DNA from: Escherichia coli
GTDB lineage: Bacteria; Pseudomonadota; Gammaproteobacteria; Enterobacterales; Enterobacteriaceae
Strand: one strand, 5' to 3'
Length of the DNA stretch: 64,000 nt
Assembly (NCBI RefSeq): GCF_001677475.2
Contig: NZ_CP015229.1
The position numbers were made by a program, and so were the translations under genes. Under the pieces are notes generated by a model, which had not been told where the DNA came from, searched no databases, and saw only the letters and a list, made by a program, of their open reading frames with translations. Below are positions 1 to 11,879 of this stretch, one piece after another (position 1 is the first letter of the stretch; each line of letters starts with the position of its first letter).

Positions 1-854
1 ATCATCGCCAAGGTCAAGATGGGTTGCCCCAGTTTTTCCCACAGTGCAAGGCGGTATTCGCTGCTGGGTTGCCCGGTTTCCTGCAAATAATGGATGTAAT
101 GATTAAGCTGACGGACAGAAAAAGTATTCCCCGGCATCGATAACTCTTCAAGATTCATACTGGTGAAGGCCGATTGGCAGGCAAGATTATCTAATGTTTC
201 CAGCGTTTCTTTGCCATTCAGCCATTTTTTATGATTCACACCATGCAGGATCCACGTTTTGTCGTCTTCAATGGTGGCACTGCGTGCATAAATGTAGGAT
301 TCGAGCGAAAGATCGTCACGATAATGAAAAATCTCCACGCCCACCGGCTGGCCCTGCTCGTTCAGCGATTTCACCGTCACAAATTCATTACCACGCCTGG
401 CCCACAGCATATTGCCGGTAATGTCATCGTCCTCCCCCAACGCAGTGGCGGTCGATTTGATTTGCAGCGCCTGTTGCTGCAATGGCGACGCCACCCACTC
501 ATCTATTGCGCCTAACGAAACAGTCCACAATATCCCAGCAACCAGCGCCACCAGTGCAATACGGAAGATAGAAAACCCAGTGCTGCGAATGGCGGTAAGC
601 TCACTGTTTTTCGATAACTGCCCCAGGCCGACAATCCCTCCCAATAAGGCGATAAACGGCGAAAGTTCGACCAGTGTGCGCGGTAAGGTCATCAGCACCA
701 CCAGCACCGCCTGAGTCCAGCGATAACCGCCCGGGCTGACATCATCCAGTTCGTTAATCAGGTTGAAGGTGGTAAAAAGCGGCAGCAATAGCCCTGCGGC
801 GGCGGCAAAACCGAGAAAGAGATGACGGATCAAATAGCGACTGAAAACATTCAT
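1..854 (-). CDS. LptG/YjgQ-family permease paralog, partial (C-terminus beyond window start)
   Basis: Hand translation of the minus strand from ATG at 854 gives MNVFSRYLIRHLFLGF... with a hydrophobic N-terminus, a conserved SELTAIRSTG segment and a long periplasmic-type middle region, open to position 1. Start overlaps the upstream stop as ATGA. Not in the ORF track because it runs off the window. Confidence 0.7.
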   Translation of the reverse strand, partial: MNVFSRYLIRHLFLGFAAAAGLLLPLFTTFNLINELDDVSPGGYRWTQAVLVVLMTLPRTLVELSPFIALLGGIVGLGQLSKNSELTAIRSTGFSIFRIALVALVAGILWTVSLGAIDEWVASPLQQQALQIKSTATALGEDDDITGNMLWARRGNEFVTVKSLNEQGQPVGVEIFHYRDDLSLESYIYARSATIEDDKTWILHGVNHKKWLNGKETLETLDNLACQSAFTSMNLEELSMPGNTFSVRQLNHYIHYLQETGQPSSEYRLALWEKLGQPILTLAM

Positions 855-1921
855 CGGGAAAATTTCTGCAGCAAAGAGAAGTCGCGTGCGACCAGCATCA
901 GCAGGCCCATTAGCATGAGTCCGGGCACTAACCACAAACCAGGAATGAGAGGAATCGCGCCGTTAGCCACCAGCGTACGGCAGACGTCGCCGCCATAAAA
1001 AATGGCAATAAACAGCAACGTCAGTGGCAATAACGTTGAAAATCGCCCCTGCCGCGGTTTTACCCGACTTAATGAAATGGCCAGCAGCGCCATCAACAAT
1101 GCTGTCAGGCCACGGCTTTGTCGCCATTGCAGTTCGGCATGATCGGCTGGAAAGACGGAGCGCGCCAGCTCCGTGACCGATTTTGCTTTGCGTTTGACGT
1201 TAGGGCTTTGATCCAGCGGATTCAGATGTAATTGCAGATTACGGTAGATCTGTTCGTTGTCGTCACGCCCCTGATGATCGAGAAGGTAGGCGGTCCCGTT
1301 ATGCAACATAACGGTCGGTTTCTCGGGTGATGGGTCAACCACATCAACCGAACGGGCGCGGAAAATGCGGGTTCGATTGGCAGTAGAAGTATAAATCAGC
1401 GCGTCAGTCAGGCGATTATTATCCTGATCAACCGTCTGCGAAAGGATCATTCGTCCGTTATCGTTAGTGTTAAATTTCTTTGCCCGCAACTGGCGAACAT
1501 CCAACTCCGACTGCGACTGTTGCTCCAGTTGATAAATCTGCGCATAAGCCCACGGACGACCATACATCGACAGAAGGGTGACAAAAATACTTAGCGGTAT
1601 CGCCAAATTAAGAACGGCTTTGTACAAGCGTCCCGGACTGCCCCCCGCCGCAGAGATAGCGGTAATTTCCGAGTCGGTATACATCTGCCCTAGCGTCACG
1701 CCAACTGACACATACAGTCCAACAGGTAACAACATCTCCAGTGCAATCAGCACTTTGTAGAAAACGATATCCAGCACAACATCAAGTGCTAATGTCCCAT
1801 TTGCCGCTTCGGTCAGATAACGCTGTGCGGAGTAGCTGGCGAAAATAAAGATCAGAAAACCGACGATAATCAGCACCAGACGGCGCGTACCACGCATGAT
1901 GTAGTGTTCAACCAGCTTCAT
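851..1921 (-). CDS. LptF/YjgP-family permease paralog (356 aa)
   Basis: ORF track 851..1921. The N-terminal TM region and the GQMYTDSEITAISAAG motif resemble LptF (GKLYTESEITVMHACG), followed by a ~150-aa hydrophilic insert and C-terminal TM helices. Start may instead be Met9. Confidence 0.75.
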   Translation of the reverse strand: MKLVEHYIMRGTRRLVLIIVGFLIFIFASYSAQRYLTEAANGTLALDVVLDIVFYKVLIALEMLLPVGLYVSVGVTLGQMYTDSEITAISAAGGSPGRLYKAVLNLAIPLSIFVTLLSMYGRPWAYAQIYQLEQQSQSELDVRQLRAKKFNTNDNGRMILSQTVDQDNNRLTDALIYTSTANRTRIFRARSVDVVDPSPEKPTVMLHNGTAYLLDHQGRDDNEQIYRNLQLHLNPLDQSPNVKRKAKSVTELARSVFPADHAELQWRQSRGLTALLMALLAISLSRVKPRQGRFSTLLPLTLLFIAIFYGGDVCRTLVANGAIPLIPGLWLVPGLMLMGLLMLVARDFSLLQKFSR

Positions 1922-1951
1922 CTCACTAACGCCCTCAATCCTTTGAGTTTT

Positions 1952-2515
1952 TTATTCATTGATCAGCTTCTGCGCCAGCGCAATGACATGATCTACCTCT
2001 TCCGGCGTCAGGCTGCCGTCCTTTGCCCACTGAATTTGCCCGGCTTTATTCAGCACCAGAATGGTTGAACTCTGCTCCGGCAAGCGCCAGGCAATGCGTC
2101 CCAGTCCATTGCCGTCAATAACGAATTGCGCCCACGGATAGCGGCGTTTATTTTTTTCGATTTTGCCAACGACAAAATAGCCGGTACCAAAAATGGCATC
2201 ATCGGTGTTCACAATGGTGGTGGGCTGAAAACGATCCTGCGGAAAGTTTGCCGCTTCAACCGCTTTAATTAACAGTGAGTTCTTTTTCTTCGCCGACTTA
2301 CGCCCAGCGATATACTGAATAATGCGAACTTTTCCCGCCAGCTGTGTGCTGTTCCACTTTTGGTAGTGAATTTCGTCGTCGCTATTCAGAAGCAGCTCGC
2401 CGCCTTCCTGGATATAAACAGGGGTAACCGTTTTGCCAGTGACGAAATTGTGTGCCTGCACACCCGGGGCTAAGAGCATGATAATCAGCGCAATAATCAA
2501 ACGAGATGACATCAT
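1952..2515 (-). CDS. YtfJ-family periplasmic protein (187 aa, signal peptide)
   Basis: N-terminal signal sequence MMSSRLIIALIIMLLAPGVQA; overall similarity to E. coli YtfJ from memory (motifs TTIVNTDDAI, QWAKDG.LTPEEV). Confidence 0.65.
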   Translation of the reverse strand: MMSSRLIIALIIMLLAPGVQAHNFVTGKTVTPVYIQEGGELLLNSDDEIHYQKWNSTQLAGKVRIIQYIAGRKSAKKKNSLLIKAVEAANFPQDRFQPTTIVNTDDAIFGTGYFVVGKIEKNKRRYPWAQFVIDGNGLGRIAWRLPEQSSTILVLNKAGQIQWAKDGSLTPEEVDHVIALAQKLINE

Positions 2516-2523
2516 TGCTCCGG

Positions 2524-3348
2524 TTATAGCGGAAAACGCGAAATCAGCAGCTCTAAGCGCTGGCGAATATCGCTATCCAGCGCCACCGGTGCATCATACG
2601 ACTGGCGGTTTTCCATATCATCCGCCACCATGTCGTCGTGTTTATCCCCCATCAGGCCATTAATGGCGGCGAGGAAACGGGAAATCTGTAACGCCTCTTT
2701 ATTTTCAGGATCAAGCGATCTTAGGGTGTCGTAATAAGAAACCTGCTGGCTGATGATTTTTCGCACATCATGAAATTCCCTGCCGGTTAGTCGCGGTTTG
2801 GCGATTATCTCTTTCAGGGTATGCATTTGCTTTTGCCGATAGGCAATAAAACCGCTTACGATTTCTAACTGGCTATGGCGTAATGAATAGTTCACCAACG
2901 ACCAGACCGGAGAGCTTAAATAAATTCGTAACAGGTTGCCGTAATACGACACAATATTTTTCTTACCGTTACGAAATCCGTCCTGAAAACGTCCCAGAAA
3001 AACGGTCGTTTTGCCGAATAAAAATCTGGCCTGATGCTTTTTTAAATACAGCCGTTGTGCAAAACGCAGATGCTTGTAGCGCGCTCGCATGTATTTAAAT
3101 TGTTTGCGCTCATCAGCAGTCAGCTCATCGCCTTTGGTCTGTTTGCGAATTAAACGCAGTAACTCCTGGCGATTAACGCCATTGAGCCAGAATTGCAGGC
3201 ATAACGCGTAATTATCATGGATGATTTCGGTGGTACAACTTAGTGCAATAGTCGGCGGCAAACTAACCTGTGCATCAACGACATCATCTTCTTCAATCGC
3301 AACAAATAGACGCTCGCTCGCCTCAAGCGGGAAATATTTTCTCATCAT
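2524..3348 (-). CDS. Hypothetical basic cytoplasmic protein (274 aa), function unknown
   Basis: Uninterrupted ORF; start overlaps the yghQ stop (ATGA); 8 bp before the next gene. No motif I recognise. Confidence 0.6.
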   Translation of the reverse strand: MMRKYFPLEASERLFVAIEEDDVVDAQVSLPPTIALSCTTEIIHDNYALCLQFWLNGVNRQELLRLIRKQTKGDELTADERKQFKYMRARYKHLRFAQRLYLKKHQARFLFGKTTVFLGRFQDGFRNGKKNIVSYYGNLLRIYLSSPVWSLVNYSLRHSQLEIVSGFIAYRQKQMHTLKEIIAKPRLTGREFHDVRKIISQQVSYYDTLRSLDPENKEALQISRFLAAINGLMGDKHDDMVADDMENRQSYDAPVALDSDIRQRLELLISRFPL

Positions 3349-4697
3349 CAGGATTTCTCTCCGGCTGCGTTATAAAGCAAGGAATGGCGCTGAAAAAATG
3401 CCTTTAAGGTTGGAATTAGCGAGAGCGCTACATCCAGACATTGCCCAGCGAAGTAAGCAAATGCAGCCCCCAGCACGCCAAACAGATGACAGAACATGAA
3501 CAGCAATACGATGTAGCCGATTGAGGCGATGGTTTGCGCCACGAGAAAAGCGCGCTGTTTTCCCGCCATCAATAGCAATGACTCCTGCGGGAAGCCCAGC
3601 ATCGAAATCACAATTGCGCCCAGCATCACCTGAATCAGGTCATACGCTTCGAGATACTTAACGCCAAACACCAGCGAAATGAGCGGCTTGCCGACGATCA
3701 ACACCGCGAGCGCCACCAGAATACCGATTCCGCCCGCCAGTAAACCGGACTTCACACCTAACAACCAAGGTCTGGTGGTGCGCGGATCTAAACGCATCAC
3801 CTCTGGGTAAAAACTTTTACCCAGCAAACCCGCTGGCGTTCCGGCGGCGTCGAAGAATGTCATGGCGATTTTAAATAACCCGGCGGCAGCGGGTCCTAAC
3901 ACGATCCCCACCAACACTGTGCTGCACGAATTACGCGCCGACCAGATGGAATGGGCAATGTTGGTTGACCAGACAAAACTCCACGAGCCTTTGATGTGTC
4001 GGGCAGACTCAAACAGATTCAATTTGAACGCGTTATGGACATTTCTGCGGCGTAATTCACGTGCGGCAAACCACCAGTACATGGTACCGCCAACAAGATT
4101 CGAGGCGTACCAGGCAATAACAAAACCCGCAAAACCAAAGTCAAAATACCAGGCAACGACGCTCCCCGCTGCACGCAGAAAAGGTTTCGTCGCCTGCTGT
4201 ACAGCAATTAAATCGAAGCGATCTACCGCACGCAGAATGCCGGTCGGCGTGGAGGAAGCCATTGAAGGAATGAGCGTGCAATAGAGCGCTGCCAGCCAAA
4301 AACTTTGGTCATCCAGACCTAATGAATGGGAAAGGAATGGCAGTAAGGCAATGCCGCCGACAATCGCCACCGCGCCGCTGACGATATCCAGCGAGAAGGA
4401 AAAAGAGACGACATTGCGAAATTGCTGCGGATTATTGTTGGTTAATGCTGGTGTTCCGTACTGAACCACCAGCTGCCATGTCTGAAACTTAATAAAATCG
4501 CTGATCGACTTGGCGTACGATTGCACAATCACCAGTACGCCAAACATGGCGGGCGTCATCCCTTTACCGGCACACGAGAGCGCCAACAGACCCAGCAAGG
4601 CGCTCACGACATTACTGGAGCCTAACCAGGCGCTATTGCGAATAATGGTGCGAAACGCGCCATCTGCAAACCAATGTTTGATGTTAAAACCCGCCAA
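3348..4697 (-). CDS. yghQ: Putative MOP/Wzx-type polysaccharide or lipid flippase, full-length 449 aa
   Basis: Polytopic membrane protein of the polysaccharide-biosynthesis (flippase) family; position immediately downstream of yghR as in K-12, where I recall YghQ as a shorter 355-aa product. Confidence 0.8.
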   Translation of the reverse strand: MAGFNIKHWFADGAFRTIIRNSAWLGSSNVVSALLGLLALSCAGKGMTPAMFGVLVIVQSYAKSISDFIKFQTWQLVVQYGTPALTNNNPQQFRNVVSFSFSLDIVSGAVAIVGGIALLPFLSHSLGLDDQSFWLAALYCTLIPSMASSTPTGILRAVDRFDLIAVQQATKPFLRAAGSVVAWYFDFGFAGFVIAWYASNLVGGTMYWWFAARELRRRNVHNAFKLNLFESARHIKGSWSFVWSTNIAHSIWSARNSCSTVLVGIVLGPAAAGLFKIAMTFFDAAGTPAGLLGKSFYPEVMRLDPRTTRPWLLGVKSGLLAGGIGILVALAVLIVGKPLISLVFGVKYLEAYDLIQVMLGAIVISMLGFPQESLLLMAGKQRAFLVAQTIASIGYIVLLFMFCHLFGVLGAAFAYFAGQCLDVALSLIPTLKAFFQRHSLLYNAAGEKS

Positions 4698-4741
4698 TTC
4701 AGCCTGAACTTATCGTTGATAGTAAAAAGTATCCGCCAGCC

Positions 4742-5500
4742 TTAAGTTAAACTTCGGCGGTCAGAAACGATGGCAACCAGAGAAACCGCCTTCTGTGCCT
4801 GTTCCAGCACTTCGCTGTAGGGCGCTCTGGAATCAATCTCAAGAATTTTTGTGCCGTTATAGCCAATCGTCGACATGACGCCGATTTTGTCCTGCAGCTC
4901 GGCATAGTCATGGTCAGGCTTGCGGGAGATGGCAGTATCAATATCAATCCCCAAACGAATGATTAATTCAGGACGGTATTGCGCCATTTGTTGGTATAAA
5001 CGCCGTTCGCGCTGCGCCAGAAACATGCTGATTTTCCCGGTCGCACGTTCGACGCCGATCCCCGGTCCGTCATAATAAAAGCCCGAAATTTCAGCCTGCG
5101 GGAAGCGATCGCTGACCACCAGAACGCCACTTTGCGCCAGTCGCTGAACCTTGCGTAGATTCGCCATTCTTCGCAGCGAGAAGCAGTACATAATCACCGC
5201 CGCCCATAGCGCTGGAGATTTGGTTTTCATGCTTTGGGTTTTCGAGGATTTGGCCGCCAGTCGCCGTTCGAGCCAGACGCCAACCAACGGCAATCGTTTG
5301 ATTTTGTCGCCGTCTTCGCCGGAGAGCAGCCCCAGATAGCGGCGCTCAGTTTGCCAGTGTTGTTGCAGCGATTTCACCAGGTCAGTGGTCAGTGTGGATT
5401 TACCGGTGCCATCACACCCGACCACCGCAATCAGCCCCGGAATGTAGTTGGGCTGCGGCGCGGTTGTACTATTAACAGTTTGTGTTTGTAGTGCATCCAT
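4742..5500 (-). CDS. yghR: P-loop NTPase / kinase-like ATP-binding protein (252 aa)
   Basis: Walker A VVGCDGTGKST, DRFPQ and ARKPDH motifs; length and position match K-12 yghR. Confidence 0.85.
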   Translation of the reverse strand: MDALQTQTVNSTTAPQPNYIPGLIAVVGCDGTGKSTLTTDLVKSLQQHWQTERRYLGLLSGEDGDKIKRLPLVGVWLERRLAAKSSKTQSMKTKSPALWAAVIMYCFSLRRMANLRKVQRLAQSGVLVVSDRFPQAEISGFYYDGPGIGVERATGKISMFLAQRERRLYQQMAQYRPELIIRLGIDIDTAISRKPDHDYAELQDKIGVMSTIGYNGTKILEIDSRAPYSEVLEQAQKAVSLVAIVSDRRSLT

Positions 5501-5529
5501 TCGTTAAATCATCCCTATCCATTTGGTGA

Positions 5530-6243
5530 TCAGGAAAGCGCGGCGTGAATTGCGCGTAGTGACGCTTGCAGAATTTCATCGGCTGGTTGCCGACCATCCA
5601 GTTCAAGGATCTTTGCGCCATTGAATGTCAGTTGCGGCGTAACGGCGATTTTTTCCTGTAACGCTGCCAGTTGGTGGTCAGGTTTACGCGCAAACGCGGT
5701 TTGTTCATCAATGCCAAGACGAATCAACAATACGGGCAAATAAGACGCCATCCATTGGTACAGCTTCAGCTCGCGCTGCCTTAACATTTTTATCCAACCG
5801 TTACCGCCCGTAGTTTTTGCCAATTGCGGGCCATCAAAGCGAAAACCCGGCACTTCAACCTGCGGGTAGCGGTCGGTGATGAGCAGATAGCCTTGCTGGC
5901 TTTTACACAACATTTTGCGAAACTTGTACGCCCGCCAGCAGGAAAGCAGATAGATAACCAGTGCAGTAATATTGCCAGGCGGTGTTGAGGGCTTTTCGTG
6001 CACATGTGCCGCTTTACTTCGCAGATAACGCCCAAAAGATGCGCCAATAATGGGCAGCTGTGAAATCCATTCGCCAATTCGCCCGGACGATTGCCCGAGA
6101 TAAATGTGTTCTGTTGGCATTCTTGCTGCCAGTTCATTTACCAGGCTTGCCGTGAGGGTCGATTTACCTGAACCATCACATCCTACAATGGCAATAACAC
6201 GCACTGGCGTGGAATTAATTATTGACATATTACGTTGATTCAC
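5530..6243 (-). CDS. yghS: P-loop NTPase / kinase-like ATP-binding protein (237 aa)
   Basis: Walker A IVGCDGSGKST, DRYPQ and ARKPDH motifs; paralog of yghR. Confidence 0.85.
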   Translation of the reverse strand: MNQRNMSIINSTPVRVIAIVGCDGSGKSTLTASLVNELAARMPTEHIYLGQSSGRIGEWISQLPIIGASFGRYLRSKAAHVHEKPSTPPGNITALVIYLLSCWRAYKFRKMLCKSQQGYLLITDRYPQVEVPGFRFDGPQLAKTTGGNGWIKMLRQRELKLYQWMASYLPVLLIRLGIDEQTAFARKPDHQLAALQEKIAVTPQLTFNGAKILELDGRQPADEILQASLRAIHAALS

Positions 6244-6416
6244 GAAAAACCCGGCAGCAAATAATGTATTGAATATTACGTGGTCCGTGCTCAGAATATC
6301 CGTTCAACCTTATTGTGACAATGGTTAATTGTGACATTGACCTGAATTACGCTTTCATAAAAACATATTAACCAAATAAATATTTTTAATGGATATTTAA
6401 ATTAAAGGATATATTC
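6244..6416. promoter_or_regulatory. Divergent yghS / yghT promoter region with direct repeat of ATTGTGACA
   Basis: AT-rich 173 bp between divergent starts; (t/a)ATTGTGACA at 6311-6320 and 6327-6336. Confidence 0.4.
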
Positions 6417-7109
6417 ATGCAGTCAATAACACCTCCATTAATTGCCGTTATTGGTAGCGATGGTTCAGGCAAGTCAACGGTGTGTGAACATCTCATTACC
6501 GTTGTCGAAAAATATGGTGCTGCCGAAAGAGTTCATTTAGGAAAACAGGCCGGAAATGTCGGTCGTGCAGTGACAAAATTACCGTTGATGGGAAAATCCT
6601 TACATAAAACAATTGAACGAAATCAGGTGAAAACAGCAAAAAAATTGCCTGGCCCTGTTCCGGCGCTGGTAATTACAGCGTTTGTCGCCCGTCGCTTACT
6701 GCGCTTTCGTCATATGCTTGCCTGTCGTCGTCGCGGGTTAATTGTTCTAACCGACCGTTATCCTCAGGACCAAATTCCTGGCGCTTACGATGGTACGGTG
6801 TTCCCACCTAACGTTGAAGGTGGTCGTTTTGTCTCATGGCTGGCAAGCCAGGAACGTAAAGCGTTTCACTGGATGGCGAGCCATAAACCTGATCTGGTCA
6901 TCAAACTCAATGTCGACCTTGAAGTTGCCTGCGCGCGTAAACCCGACCATAAACGGGAATCGCTGGCGAGGAAGATTGCCATAACGCCACAGTTAACCTT
7001 TGGTGGTGCACAACTGGTTGATATCGACGCCAATCAGCCACTGGAAAAGGTGCTGGTTGATGCAGAAAAAGCGATTACGGATTTTATGATCGCGCGTGGT
7101 TATCACTAG
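6417..7109 (+). CDS. yghT: P-loop NTPase / kinase-like ATP-binding protein (230 aa)
   Basis: Walker [17 protein letters not shown] and ARKPDH motifs; third paralog, divergently transcribed. Confidence 0.85.
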
Positions 7110-8948: not shown

Positions 8949-10808
8949 TTACTCTTTCACCACAATTAACGGTTCAATATCACTCTCTTTTTTAATGACC
9001 AGTGATTCATCACCGCGCAAACACGTCCCACCGTAGTTGCCGCCAACGGTGAAGGTACATACCTGAATGTATTTACCGTCCACTTTCGGCAAACACCACA
9101 GTTGCTGATAGATGTTTTTCTGCTCGGCAAATTTACCGCTGGTTTTGTCCAGCACCTCTTCATGATGGCTGACGAGGTCGATGTTACTGCCACAGCGACC
9201 GGCGATCGGTTTCACTGCGTAACCTGTTTTTACCAGTTCATCATTAACAGTGAAATCGGTATCCAGCAGGTAGCGATGGTGCGGGAACAGCGACCAGAGG
9301 ATCGGCAGAATCGCTTTGTTGCCGGGGATCACTGTCCACAGAGGTTCAAAGACCAGCACTTCCGGGCGCAGCAATACGTCGATAAGACGCACTTCATTTT
9401 GCGGATGACCGGTACGGATCGGCACCGCAGCAAACTCACGGTCGCTAACTTCACGAATCTGATCAAACGCGGTTTCCCACGCCCAGGTTTTCCACACGCA
9501 GTTAACCAGTCGCCCTTCCCCATCAATCAGTTGCCCGGCAGCATCCCAGCCCAGTTCATCCAGCCCGCGCAAGATACGCGTTTCAAAGCCCGCCTGGTGC
9601 AGCGCCTGCTCCATAAACTGCGCGTGATAGTTTTCCTCGATATCTTTGTCCTGCATGATATGGACAAACGGACGTGCACGACTGTGTTTCCAGGCACCAG
9701 CCAGTTCGTTAATCAGCCCTTCCGCCGGATTGAAGCCGTTGCCTTTATAGCCCTGCTCCGCCCAACGTTCGAGGATCAAGCCAGCTTCGGTATGACAGGA
9801 GGCGGAGTCGGCGTTGTATTCGTAGACCTTCAGGCCACGCTCATCCATGCAGAAATCCATACGACCGGTGATCATATGGTGACGGCGACGCTGCCAGGAG
9901 AGACGCAAACGTGGCCAGAGGATTTTCGGAATGTCGAACAGCGCCAGCAGGTTGTCATCTTTTAGCACCTTGTCGGTTGCGTGAAGATACATCAGGTGCA
10001 GCTCGTTGGTGGCTTTAATCAGCTCCTGCTCGGCGCTCTCGGTAATGGTGTAGTAATGATACGGATCCTGATTGATCACCTGACCGTTGGCCTGCACATA
10101 GGCGTTTTGCAGCGGATCTTTTTCATCCAGCCATTTACCGTCAAACTGGCCTTTGTTTTCCAGACGCGCTCCGCTGATTTTCAGCAGCTCGCCTGCAATT
10201 TCCGGCTGCGGTAAGCTGTATTCAGTATCTTCCGTCTGGATCATCCAGCCCAGAATGGTGGTGTCATCAAAAGTGTCTTTAAGGGTATAGCAGCCGTTTT
10301 CGACCACCATCTCCAGCTCGCGCGTCCACTGTTGTCCTTGCGGCAACGGGGAATGAATCACGTTCTGTTCCGCAATACGGACTTTGTTGCCATGCAATTG
10401 GGTAATGATGGCGACATGGCCGGTGTCTTTAAATTCACCGCCTTTATCCCAGATAAGAAGCGCACCCGCGACCGGCGCACGCGGCGAGCCGTTAGGAAAT
10501 GCCTGCAATGGCAGGATGTTGTCATTAACCACTTCACGCAGGAAGCGCAGCGAGAAAATCTCCCACGCCATACCCACGTCAGTGAAGACCACACCGTAGT
10601 TCAGAAAGAGAAAACGGCGAGCAAATTCAACGCATTGCCATTTGTGGCCCATATATTCGTCGTCGATATAGCTACGGAATACGGCGTCATCTTCGTATTC
10701 CTGCGGATCGAGAGAACTGTAATCTGAAGAGTAGATTGCTACCCCACCTGGGGCGTAGCCCAATAATGTCCCGAACGGGGCATCCTGGCTGGTCGTTCCT
10801 TTGCTCAT
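8949..10808 (-). CDS. gss: Bifunctional glutathionylspermidine synthetase/amidase (619 aa)
   Basis: Begins MSKGTTSQDAPFGTLLGYAPGGVAIYSSDYSS; N-terminal CHAP-type amidase plus C-terminal ATP-grasp synthetase. Confidence 0.95.
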   Translation of the reverse strand: MSKGTTSQDAPFGTLLGYAPGGVAIYSSDYSSLDPQEYEDDAVFRSYIDDEYMGHKWQCVEFARRFLFLNYGVVFTDVGMAWEIFSLRFLREVVNDNILPLQAFPNGSPRAPVAGALLIWDKGGEFKDTGHVAIITQLHGNKVRIAEQNVIHSPLPQGQQWTRELEMVVENGCYTLKDTFDDTTILGWMIQTEDTEYSLPQPEIAGELLKISGARLENKGQFDGKWLDEKDPLQNAYVQANGQVINQDPYHYYTITESAEQELIKATNELHLMYLHATDKVLKDDNLLALFDIPKILWPRLRLSWQRRRHHMITGRMDFCMDERGLKVYEYNADSASCHTEAGLILERWAEQGYKGNGFNPAEGLINELAGAWKHSRARPFVHIMQDKDIEENYHAQFMEQALHQAGFETRILRGLDELGWDAAGQLIDGEGRLVNCVWKTWAWETAFDQIREVSDREFAAVPIRTGHPQNEVRLIDVLLRPEVLVFEPLWTVIPGNKAILPILWSLFPHHRYLLDTDFTVNDELVKTGYAVKPIAGRCGSNIDLVSHHEEVLDKTSGKFAEQKNIYQQLWCLPKVDGKYIQVCTFTVGGNYGGTCLRGDESLVIKKESDIEPLIVVKE

Positions 10809-11012
10809 CACTTTACCTTTAACAATACAACCTAAGCAGTTGGCGTAATTGTTGTGCTCTGATTACCTGCTCAGCGACATTAACCGGACAGAGGTCAGAC
10901 TAATCATACACCTCATCGCAGCGGCTGGTGCAAAGGGTTAAAAAATTCACATTCTGTACAGCAAGTGACCTGCTACACTGCTTCAACACTACCACTCAGA
11001 AGGCAACTCACT

Positions 11013-11879
11013 ATGACAGACAATACTTATCAGCCCGCGAAAGTCTGGACGTGGGATAAATCCGCTGGCGGCGCGTTCGCCAATATCAATCGCCCGGTTT
11101 CTGGTCCGACGCATGAAAAAACGCTGCCCGTTGGCAAACATCCATTGCAACTTTATTCGCTGGGAACGCCGAACGGTCAGAAAGTAACGATTATGCTTGA
11201 GGAGCTGCTGGCGCTGGGCGTTACTGGTGCAGAGTACGATGCCTGGCTGATACGCATAGGCGATGGAGATCAATTCTCCAGCGGCTTTGTCGAAGTGAAC
11301 CCAAATTCGAAGATCCCGGCGCTGCGCGATCATACGCATAATCCGCCGATCCGCGTGTTTGAGTCTGGTTCGATCCTGCTTTATCTGGCAGAGAAATTTG
11401 GCTACTTCTTGCCGCAGGATCTGGCGAAACGTACTGAAGCAATGAACTGGCTGTTCTGGCTACAGGGGGCTGCGCCGTTCCTCGGCGGTGGTTTTGGTCA
11501 CTTTTACCATTACGCGCCGGTGAAAATTGAGTACGCCATCAATCGCTTTACCATGGAAGCCAAGCGCCTGCTCGACGTGCTGGATAAGCAACTGGCGCAG
11601 CATAAGTTTGTTGCGGGCGATGAGTACACCATTGCGGATATGGCGATTTGGCCGTGGTTTGGCAACGTGGTGTTAGGCGGCGTGTATGATGCCGCAGAGT
11701 TTCTTGATGCAGGTAGTTATAAACACGTACAACGCTGGGCGAAAGAAGTAGGCGAACGTCCGGCGGTGAAGCGTGGGCGTATTGTTAACCGCACCAACGG
11801 ACCGCTGAATGAGCAGTTGCATGAGCGCCATGACGCCAGTGATTTCGAGACAAATACAGAAGATAAGCGTCAGGGGTAA
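11013..11879 (+). CDS. yghU: Nu-class glutathione S-transferase-like disulfide reductase (288 aa)
   Basis: Starts MTDNTYQPAKVWTWDKSAGGAFANINRPVSG, matching YghU from memory. Confidence 0.93.
   Translation: MTDNTYQPAKVWTWDKSAGGAFANINRPVSGPTHEKTLPVGKHPLQLYSLGTPNGQKVTIMLEELLALGVTGAEYDAWLIRIGDGDQFSSGFVEVNPNSKIPALRDHTHNPPIRVFESGSILLYLAEKFGYFLPQDLAKRTEAMNWLFWLQGAAPFLGGGFGHFYHYAPVKIEYAINRFTMEAKRLLDVLDKQLAQHKFVAGDEYTIADMAIWPWFGNVVLGGVYDAAEFLDAGSYKHVQRWAKEVGERPAVKRGRIVNRTNGPLNEQLHERHDASDFETNTEDKRQG

Follow-up and report, generated by a model that had tools for sequence, protein, structure and literature searches.

Canonical CHAD proteins bind polyphosphate (polyP) and locate to polyP granules (PMC6537752). 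The residues of their H-x2-R-x3-R motifs line a central basic cavity and contact polyP in the crystal (Lorenzo-Orts et al. 2019, PMC6537752); the contacting residues are H253, R256 and R260 in CtCHAD and H29, R32 and R36 in SsCHAD, and their mutation lowers binding (PMC6537752). Here we describe ORF274, an open reading frame (ORF) of 274 codons located between the flippase gene yghQ and a YtfJ-family gene of Escherichia coli, in a stretch of 64,000 nucleotides (nt) from contig NZ_CP015229.1 (hereafter the window). Its product is very probably a divergent protein of the CHAD superfamily, and two further systems were considered for comparison.

The first is the PPK3 operon of Sulfolobus acidocaldarius (saci_2017-2021), which codes for SixA, PPX, two thymidylate-kinase paralogs and a CHAD protein (Höfmann et al. 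2026, PMC12995831). The two paralogs together form PPK3, a reversible polyphosphate kinase (PMC12995831), and this is the only characterised operon in which thymidylate-kinase paralogs are paired with a CHAD protein. ST1543 is a homologue of the PPK3 catalytic subunit. The second is the sphingolipid locus of Caulobacter crescentus (CC_1152-CC_1168), which holds the genes for ceramide synthesis, the CpgABC head-group enzymes, the flippase CC_1166 and LptF2/G2/C2; the Caulobacter LptF2/LptG2 homologues have been implicated in sphingolipid transport (bioRxiv 10.64898/2026.04.12.717747). Our literature searches returned no work linking CHAD with sphingolipids, nor any giving a role to the 274-aa gene or to yghQRST.

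The sequence of ORF274 itself was compared with Pfam and NCBIfam and had no family match, the Pfam CHAD model being silent even at E ≤ 1. The sole line in these scans, to MRP-L51 (E 0.16), was taken as chance. A profile of close orthologs likewise matched none of the PDB sequences, even at E 10. To this extent the first-pass annotation, which found no motif that could be placed and called the protein unrecognisable, agrees with the direct scans; the deeper profiles and the structure, however, make it recognisable as CHAD-like. The AlphaFold2 model, built with 25 orthologs, has a mean predicted local distance difference test score of 92.1 and a predicted template modelling (TM) score of 0.88. 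It is all-helical, with 11 helices that include two four-helix bundles related by pseudo-twofold symmetry. CHAD structures were the top fold matches of this model in Foldseek, the first being that of the Ricinus CHAD protein (PDB ID: 6qv5), which was also the sole full-length match with a TM score of 0.50. The source annotation “TPR repeat protein clustered with yghQ” was rejected, as no TPR structure was present among the fold matches.

The link to CHAD at the level of sequence goes through the relatives of ORF274. A profile search started from its orthologs, run against 1.84 billion representatives, collected 298 clusters, and 25 of the 88 full-length family members match Pfam CHAD on their own (E ≤ 0.01; best E 1.7e-8). 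Relative P0184 joins the two families directly: it matches the close-ortholog profile with an E-value of 2.4e-38 and scores 40.9 bits on Pfam CHAD, for which the gathering score is 25.6. With the 88-member profile, the best PDB match is again 6qv5 (E 0.0018), and both halves are aligned motif-to-motif. At least one ortholog (P0111) has already been named “CHAD domain-containing protein” automatically in UniRef. The CHAD membership of ORF274 therefore rests on this transitive link together with the structure, since its own sequence lies below the detection of Pfam. The protein is a stand-alone CHAD domain, in which each of the two pseudo-twofold related four-helix bundles carries a conserved basic ladder. 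While the fold family is already known, what appears to be new is this subfamily and its setting, beside genes for a MOP flippase and for thymidylate-kinase-like paralogs and within or close to sphingolipid loci. The gene and its conserved motifs are as follows, the conservation percentages here and below being those of an alignment of 88 family members.

2524..3348, minus strand: ORF274 (CHADL, for divergent CHAD-like protein), 274 aa, all-helical (11 helices), cytoplasmic
3064..3096, minus strand: basic ladder of bundle 1, K85-x2-R88-x-R90-x-K92-x2-R95, in helix 78-101; basic in 85-100% of members
2980..2994, minus strand: G119-x2-Q122-D123 of bundle 1, corresponding to “LG...D” in CHAD proteins; G119 conserved in 99% and D123 in 100%
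2746..2772, minus strand: basic ladder of bundle 2, H193-x2-R196-K197-x3-(R/K201), in helix 189-212; aligns with the second H-x2-R of 6qv5
2635..2661, minus strand: N230-G-x-M-G234-x2-H237-D238 of bundle 2, 93-99% conserved; aligns with “LGrhnD” of 6qv5

The H-x2-R-x3-R motif of CHAD is thus found in both bundles, with K85 taking the place of the histidine in bundle 1, where the ladder aligns in register with the H-x2-R-x3-RR-x-R of 6qv5. Four residues are invariant in the family (R88, D123, H193 and R196), and a further seven (K85, K92, R95, H105, K197, H237 and D238) are conserved in 86-99% of its members. In the second ladder, position 197 is basic in 97% of the sequences and position 201 in 77%, the E. 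coli residue at the latter being Q. A profile-profile alignment (hhalign) of the two halves of ORF274 paired their motifs in register, if weakly, with G119..D123 opposite G234..D238. Conservation also extends to residues that are specific to the ORF274 family and lie outside the canonical CHAD signature, namely H105 and H237 (both 97%), N230 and Y251.

Several members of the family depart from the single-domain architecture. P0122, a metagenomic protein of 564 aa, consists of two fused CHAD-like copies, and the CHAD-like gene is tandemly duplicated in two Luteibacter genomes (L045, positions 9968-11757, and L051); both arrangements hint at a protein that works as a dimer. Distant members are fused to kinase domains of the APH/choline-kinase type (P0233 and P0236) or to a cytidylyltransferase(-like) domain (P0254), and two CHAD-like repeats are often present in such fusions. 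Signal peptides or signals for lipoproteins occur among the distant relatives (P0233, P0236, P0254, P0184 and P0265; loci L081-L084). The neighbourhoods of distant relatives (P0233 and P0184; L081-L084) contain a porin, a TonB system and haem oxygenase, with no lipid or polyP link, and were given no weight in the interpretation.

ORF274 is a genuine gene rather than an ORF that arose by chance. Of 5426 complete E. coli genomes, 4165 carry it (annotated as “hypothetical protein” in all), its frame is retained down to 34-36% identity in Alphaproteobacteria, and its ratio of nonsynonymous to synonymous substitution rates is 0.06-0.11 when compared with other Escherichia and with Pseudocitrobacter. 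It starts with ATG on the minus strand of the window and comprises 274 codons followed by a TAA stop. The product has an isoelectric point (pI) of 9.4, and the lysine/arginine-rich middle third pointed out by the first-pass annotation is borne out by the counts (16 K+R against 3 D+E, pI 10.7), the outer thirds being neutral to acidic. Equally, we agree that there is neither a signal peptide nor a transmembrane segment, because the highest Kyte-Doolittle mean over 19 residues is only 0.82. The G+C content of the gene is 45.7% (49.8% at third codon positions), below that of yghQ (52.1%; 59.6% at third positions), lptF2 (51.2%) and yghR (53.2%).

At its 5' end, the gene is translationally coupled to yghQ. 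The yghQ stop TGA (3348-3350) and the ORF274 ATG (3346-3348) share one base, and a GGAGAG Shine-Dalgarno sequence (3357-3362) is placed 8 nt 5' of the start, within the end of yghQ. The overlap had been described as an ATGA; it is real, but in the window the junction reads TCC-TGA-TG-ATG, with TGATG and a single shared nucleotide, ATGA being the commonest form in the orthologous loci. At the 3' end, the distance of 8 nt to the YtfJ-like gene was given correctly, counted from the TAA to the next start, and this spacer contains a GGAG. A promoter and terminator scan of the first 7.2 kb of the window gave 8 promoter-like sites, against 7.9 expected by chance. A weak -10/-35 match within ORF274 (2593-2621, minus strand) was taken as chance, and a terminator-like hairpin at 3311-3331 was regarded in the same way. 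The genes surrounding ORF274 in the window are the following.

3346..3362, minus strand: coupling junction yghQ/ORF274, a Shine-Dalgarno sequence and overlapping stop and start; the arrangement is kept in other genomes
3348..4697, minus strand: yghQ-type MOP-family flippase of 449 aa (Pfam Polysacc_synt, E 7e-11; NCBIfam MOP flippase)
4742..5500, minus strand: yghR, thymidylate-kinase-superfamily P-loop paralog 1
5530..6243, minus strand: yghS, thymidylate-kinase-superfamily P-loop paralog 2
6417..7109, plus strand: yghT, thymidylate-kinase-superfamily P-loop paralog 3, divergently transcribed
1952..2515, minus strand: YtfJ-family periplasmic protein with a signal peptide, downstream of ORF274 in the operon (Pfam YtfJ_HI0045, E 2.7e-59)
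851..1921, minus strand: LptF paralog, LptF2 (NCBIfam LptF, E 1.9e-94)
1..854, minus strand: LptG paralog, LptG2, cut by the window start and assigned by synteny with E. coli C11

The conservation of this neighbourhood was followed in 79 loci with ORF274 relatives, taking one genome per species; the loci were located with a 20-sequence alignment and their ORFs were screened with the E. coli island proteins. The tie to yghQ that the first-pass annotation had proposed holds well beyond E. coli, with the frame conserved in related genomes and a yghQ homologue directly upstream, on the same strand, in 68 of the 79 loci, which makes yghQ the most constant neighbour of the CHADL gene. Of the YghR/S/T paralogs, 69 loci have at least one and 66 have at least two. 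The other components are more restricted: spt is found within 10 kb in 48 loci, only in Enterobacterales and Rhodanobacteraceae, and LptF2/G2 (47 loci) and YtfJ (48 loci) only in Enterobacterales. The distance between the yghQ stop and the CHADL start was determined for 66 loci. It is a 4-nt overlap (ATGA/GTGA) in 34 of them and a 1-nt overlap in 11, and falls within -26 to +14 nt in all but one.

In the Enterobacterales, the blocks made of lptF2G2, of spt and its companions, and of yghRST are reshuffled among genera, and the yghQ-CHADL pair remains unbroken. In the Sphingomonadales, yghS-(yghR)-yghT-yghQ-CHADL are consecutive on one strand, with no spt within 10 kb; the module has five genes in L053 and in L057, and four in most of the loci from Novosphingobium. 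In Sphingopyxis yananensis (L053, 4705-5974), a gene for an extracytoplasmic function (ECF) sigma factor and a 243-aa ORF, possibly an anti-sigma factor, lie directly 5' of yghS-yghR-yghT-yghQ-CHADL, with an OEP/HlyD/ABC-2 export system further upstream. In Acetobacter, CHADL is flanked by yghT on one side and by an ArnT-like (PMT_2) glycosyltransferase on the other, and glycosyltransferases of families GT2 and GT4, yghQ and yghR are nearby, which suggests that the module is able to serve lipid-linked glycan as well as ceramide pathways. The locus of A. cibinongensis (L077, 6433-14163) has yghT-CHADL amid GT4, GT2 (ArnC-like) and PMT_2 (ArnT-like) genes, and a type I-F CRISPR-Cas system immediately downstream. 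The family is carried by Enterobacterales, Rhodanobacteraceae, Sphingomonadales and Acetobacteraceae, all of them groups with known or predicted sphingolipids. One record, a contig labelled as the alphaproteobacterium Martelella alba BGMRC 2031 (L037), has an Enterobacterales-type island in the Serratia/Pantoea gene order with 60% identity to ORF274, and looks like assembly contamination or mislabelling.

In E. coli itself, positions 1-7109 of the window represent one arm of the sphingolipid (spt) island, the genes spt, acp, epi, aasR and yghO lying just beyond the window start. The order in E. coli C11 (L001, 8237-21197) is yghT / yghS-yghR-yghQ-ORF274-ytfJ-lptF-lptG / spt-acp-epimerase/reductase-fatty acyl-AMP ligase / yghO / glcC, and the end of lptF overlaps the start of lptG by 4 nt. 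The clustering expected of an spt island (spt, acpR, cerR/epi, aasR and bcerS/yghO) is thereby seen at the ORF274 locus. The last five genes before glcC in C11 correspond to the ceramide-synthesis genes ECD_02850-02854 of BL21 (aca/yghO, aasR, epi, acpR and spt; PMC9386255), and a 2026 preprint on LptF2/G2 draws the UTI89 locus beside the sphingolipid operons of Caulobacter and Sphingomonas (bioRxiv 10.64898/2026.04.12.717747). The 274-aa gene is discussed in neither of these two papers. The first 7.2 kb of the window match in part in 4746 of the 5426 complete E. coli genomes and over at least 80% in 4107, so many strains carry a truncated island. K-12 is another strain in which the island has been lost, presumably by an IS5-associated deletion.

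Membership in the thymidylate kinase superfamily, and paralogy to the housekeeping Tmk, were established for YghR, YghS and YghT by profile. Each scores below threshold on Pfam Thymidylate_kin and single-sequence searches of the PDB with each of the three were uninformative, while the best PDB matches of a 17-sequence YghR/S/T profile are thymidylate kinases (E 1e-7). The three proteins share 33-36% identity with each other and keep the GxDGxGK[ST], DR[YF]PQ and RKPDH motifs in all taxa. They also have in common a stretch of about 60 inserted residues that follows the P-loop helix and is modelled by AlphaFold with low confidence, in which a conserved LG..SG..G..I..LP.IG and a hydrophobic helix can be recognised. 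The NCBI Prokaryotic Genome Annotation Pipeline names yghS and yghT “dTMP kinase”, a label that is probably misleading. The ceramide kinase of Caulobacter, CpgB, is of the diacylglycerol kinase (DAGK) type with a GGDG motif and bears no relation to the three.

From a polyP-type site that has been preserved, a coupling to the flippase that is strict and the constant company of P-loop kinases, we propose that ORF274 is a cytoplasmic accessory protein that binds a phosphate chain and serves the module formed by the YghRST kinases and the YghQ flippase, a reading to which we give a probability of roughly 0.45. The nearest precedent for it is the archaeal PPK3 operon. The kinase and cytidylyltransferase domains fused to distant relatives (P0233, P0236 and P0254) speak in its favour, as they provide other links to kinases. 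According to this proposal, ORF274 would be made in the cytoplasm at a fixed ratio to YghQ through translational coupling, as part of a conserved module of YghR/S/T, YghQ and the CHAD-like protein that in Enterobacterales and Rhodanobacteraceae lies within the spt island. Its basic face would bind a phosphoanhydride chain, which could be either cytoplasmic polyP used or made by YghRST, or an oligophosphate-type head group built on a lipid. ORF274 would then keep this ligand at the inner membrane face, available to the kinases and to YghQ for flipping, after which LptF2G2 and YtfJ, where present, could move the anionic lipid outward. For Enterobacterales, the module may accordingly be seen as that arm of the sphingolipid island which provides the head group and the flipping, placed upstream of LptF2G2.

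A bolder version would have YghR/S/T build an oligo- or polyphosphate head group on ceramide or another lipid, with CHADL chaperoning the chain and handing the lipid to YghQ, and LptF2G2 carrying it to the outer membrane. We consider it a long shot. It would, if true, add a lipid-anchored (poly)phosphate to the surface lipids of bacteria, and make CHADL the first CHAD protein to have a defined part in the biogenesis of membrane lipids.

A number of observations weigh against the accessory proposal. The roles assigned to ligand, lipid and partners are predictions from sequence, for a protein that scores nothing on Pfam CHAD, and the sphingolipid output of the E. coli island is itself presumed from its genes. 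The first histidine of bundle 1 is replaced (K85), the second ladder is shortened in E. coli (S200, Q201 and V203), and H105 and H237 are conserved in this family only; given these departures from the canonical CHAD, the ligand specificity may have changed. PPK3 consists of a catalytic and a regulatory subunit, whereas the ORF274 locus has three kinases, all with an intact P-loop and DR[YF]. Against the PPK3-type structure (2plr/5h70), YghRST reach only E 0.05, over the P-loop alone, as opposed to 1e-7 for ordinary thymidylate kinases. In Caulobacter, the locus has a flippase and LptF2G2 without CHAD, and a CHAD protein is therefore not generally needed for sphingolipid export. Finally, some genomes have extra, orphan CHADL copies in unrelated contexts. 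These were seen in Pluralibacter (L020, L029), Sphingomonas formosensis (L065) and Acetobacter (L072, L076), in neighbourhoods with a BCCT transporter, an M20 peptidase, a 2-oxoglutarate oxygenase or GH108.

The CHAD fold could instead have been reused as a structural adaptor, a scaffold for protein-protein contacts or for the membrane surface without a specific phosphate-chain ligand; it might, for instance, attach to YghQ from the cytoplasmic side or to the head groups of anionic phospholipids, and so assemble or stabilise a flippase-kinase complex. Translational coupling to yghQ in most genomes would suit such a stoichiometric complex, as would the dimer suggested by the tandem duplicates and by P0122, and the divergence is large enough for Pfam CHAD to miss ORF274. 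However, the residues kept throughout the family (R88, H193, R196, K92, R95 and K197) are those lining the canonical polyP site, and a mere scaffold would not be expected to preserve them from Enterobacterales to Acetobacteraceae; we regard this explanation as unlikely. Quite unlikely, too, is that ORF274 is a polyP-responsive regulator, binding the stress polyP made by PPK1 and switching YghQ or the kinases so that lipid export is tied to starvation or envelope stress. This would agree with the polyP binding and granule localisation of canonical CHADs, and with the ECF sigma factor gene 5' of the five-gene module of Sphingopyxis, from which it is separated by the 243-aa ORF. Yet a gene that is strictly coupled to that of a transporter, and inherited together with it, more typically codes for a subunit than for a regulator, and ORF274 has no DNA-binding or signalling domain.

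The family-specific histidines raise the question of a catalytic protein, in which an active site made up of H105, H193, H237-D238 and D123 would process what the YghRST kinases produce, for example as a phosphohistidine relay or as a pyrophosphatase or phosphotransferase. In the original proposal of Iyer and Aravind, as quoted in PMC6537752, the histidines of CHAD accept phosphate or bind metal, and the 97% conservation of H105 and H237 outside the canonical signature would be in line with this; we nevertheless hold catalysis to be improbable. A conserved passenger gene, whose role has nothing to do with its neighbours, is what the orphan copies might suggest; this is very improbable, since yghQ adjacency is maintained in 68 of 79 loci and in three bacterial orders despite repeated rearrangement around it, and the genomes with the orphans of L020, L029 and L065 each have a yghQ-linked copy in addition.

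For the accessory proposal, the interest lies in where the CHAD fold has been found. CHAD domains have so far been known only as polyP-binding modules on polyP enzymes or granules, and here a CHAD-like protein is tied to a lipid flippase and to three uncharacterised thymidylate-kinase-like y-gene products, YghR/S/T. This conserved association suggests a step in the building or export of an anionic membrane lipid, and with it a possible link between polyP chemistry and outer-membrane lipid biogenesis. The island that harbours the module in Enterobacterales is present in about three quarters of complete E. coli genomes. The association offers a lead on the E. coli-type sphingolipid head group, on its flipping and on the roles of YghQRST. 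For annotation, a widespread “hypothetical protein” becomes a CHAD-like protein associated with YghQ.

Compared with the described CHAD proteins (6qv5 of Ricinus, 3e0s and 6qv7/6qva of Chlorobium, 6rn5 of PptA and the C-terminal domain of YgiF, 5a61), ORF274 has the same two four-helix bundles in about 280 residues, and each bundle opens with a ladder helix of the form [H/K]-x2-R-x3-[K/R]-x2-R followed by a G-x3-D helix. It is also stand-alone and cytoplasmic, as are the “long” CHADs. It differs in lying beyond the reach of the Pfam model, in a first ladder led by lysine and a second one shortened in E. coli, and in the additional H105, H237, N230 and Y251. Its neighbours are different as well: a MOP flippase and thymidylate-kinase-like paralogs beside sphingolipid genes, instead of PPK1/PPK2, PPX or CYTH.

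With the PPK3 operon, the locus shares several thymidylate-kinase-superfamily paralogs, separate from the housekeeping Tmk, together with a CHAD-fold protein. It differs in its membrane flippase, in its ties to lipid genes and in having no PPX or SixA. At the loci with scanned neighbours, none of the genes adjoining the module was identified as PPX, SixA or Pst, the 79-locus screen having used island proteins only; the partners found at the scanned loci were the flippase, glycosyltransferases and sphingolipid genes. The ORF274 locus is therefore not classified as a PPK3 system, only as architecturally similar to one. Since YghRST are no closer to 2plr/5h70 than to ordinary thymidylate kinases, the analogy is one of architecture; YghRST as PPK3 proper is unsupported by sequence, and the operon partners differ.

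The Caulobacter locus resembles the E. coli island in clustering spt, acpR, cerR, aasR and bcerS with a MOP-type flippase and LptF/LptG paralogs. A counterpart of ORF274 was sought in this cluster, and none of its genes is CHAD-like; YghRST are likewise missing, the ceramide kinase being of the DAGK type and not a P-loop protein. Its head group is made by this kinase, CpgB, and by phosphoglycerate-adding enzymes, whereas the E. coli-type island has YghRST, CHADL and YtfJ instead.

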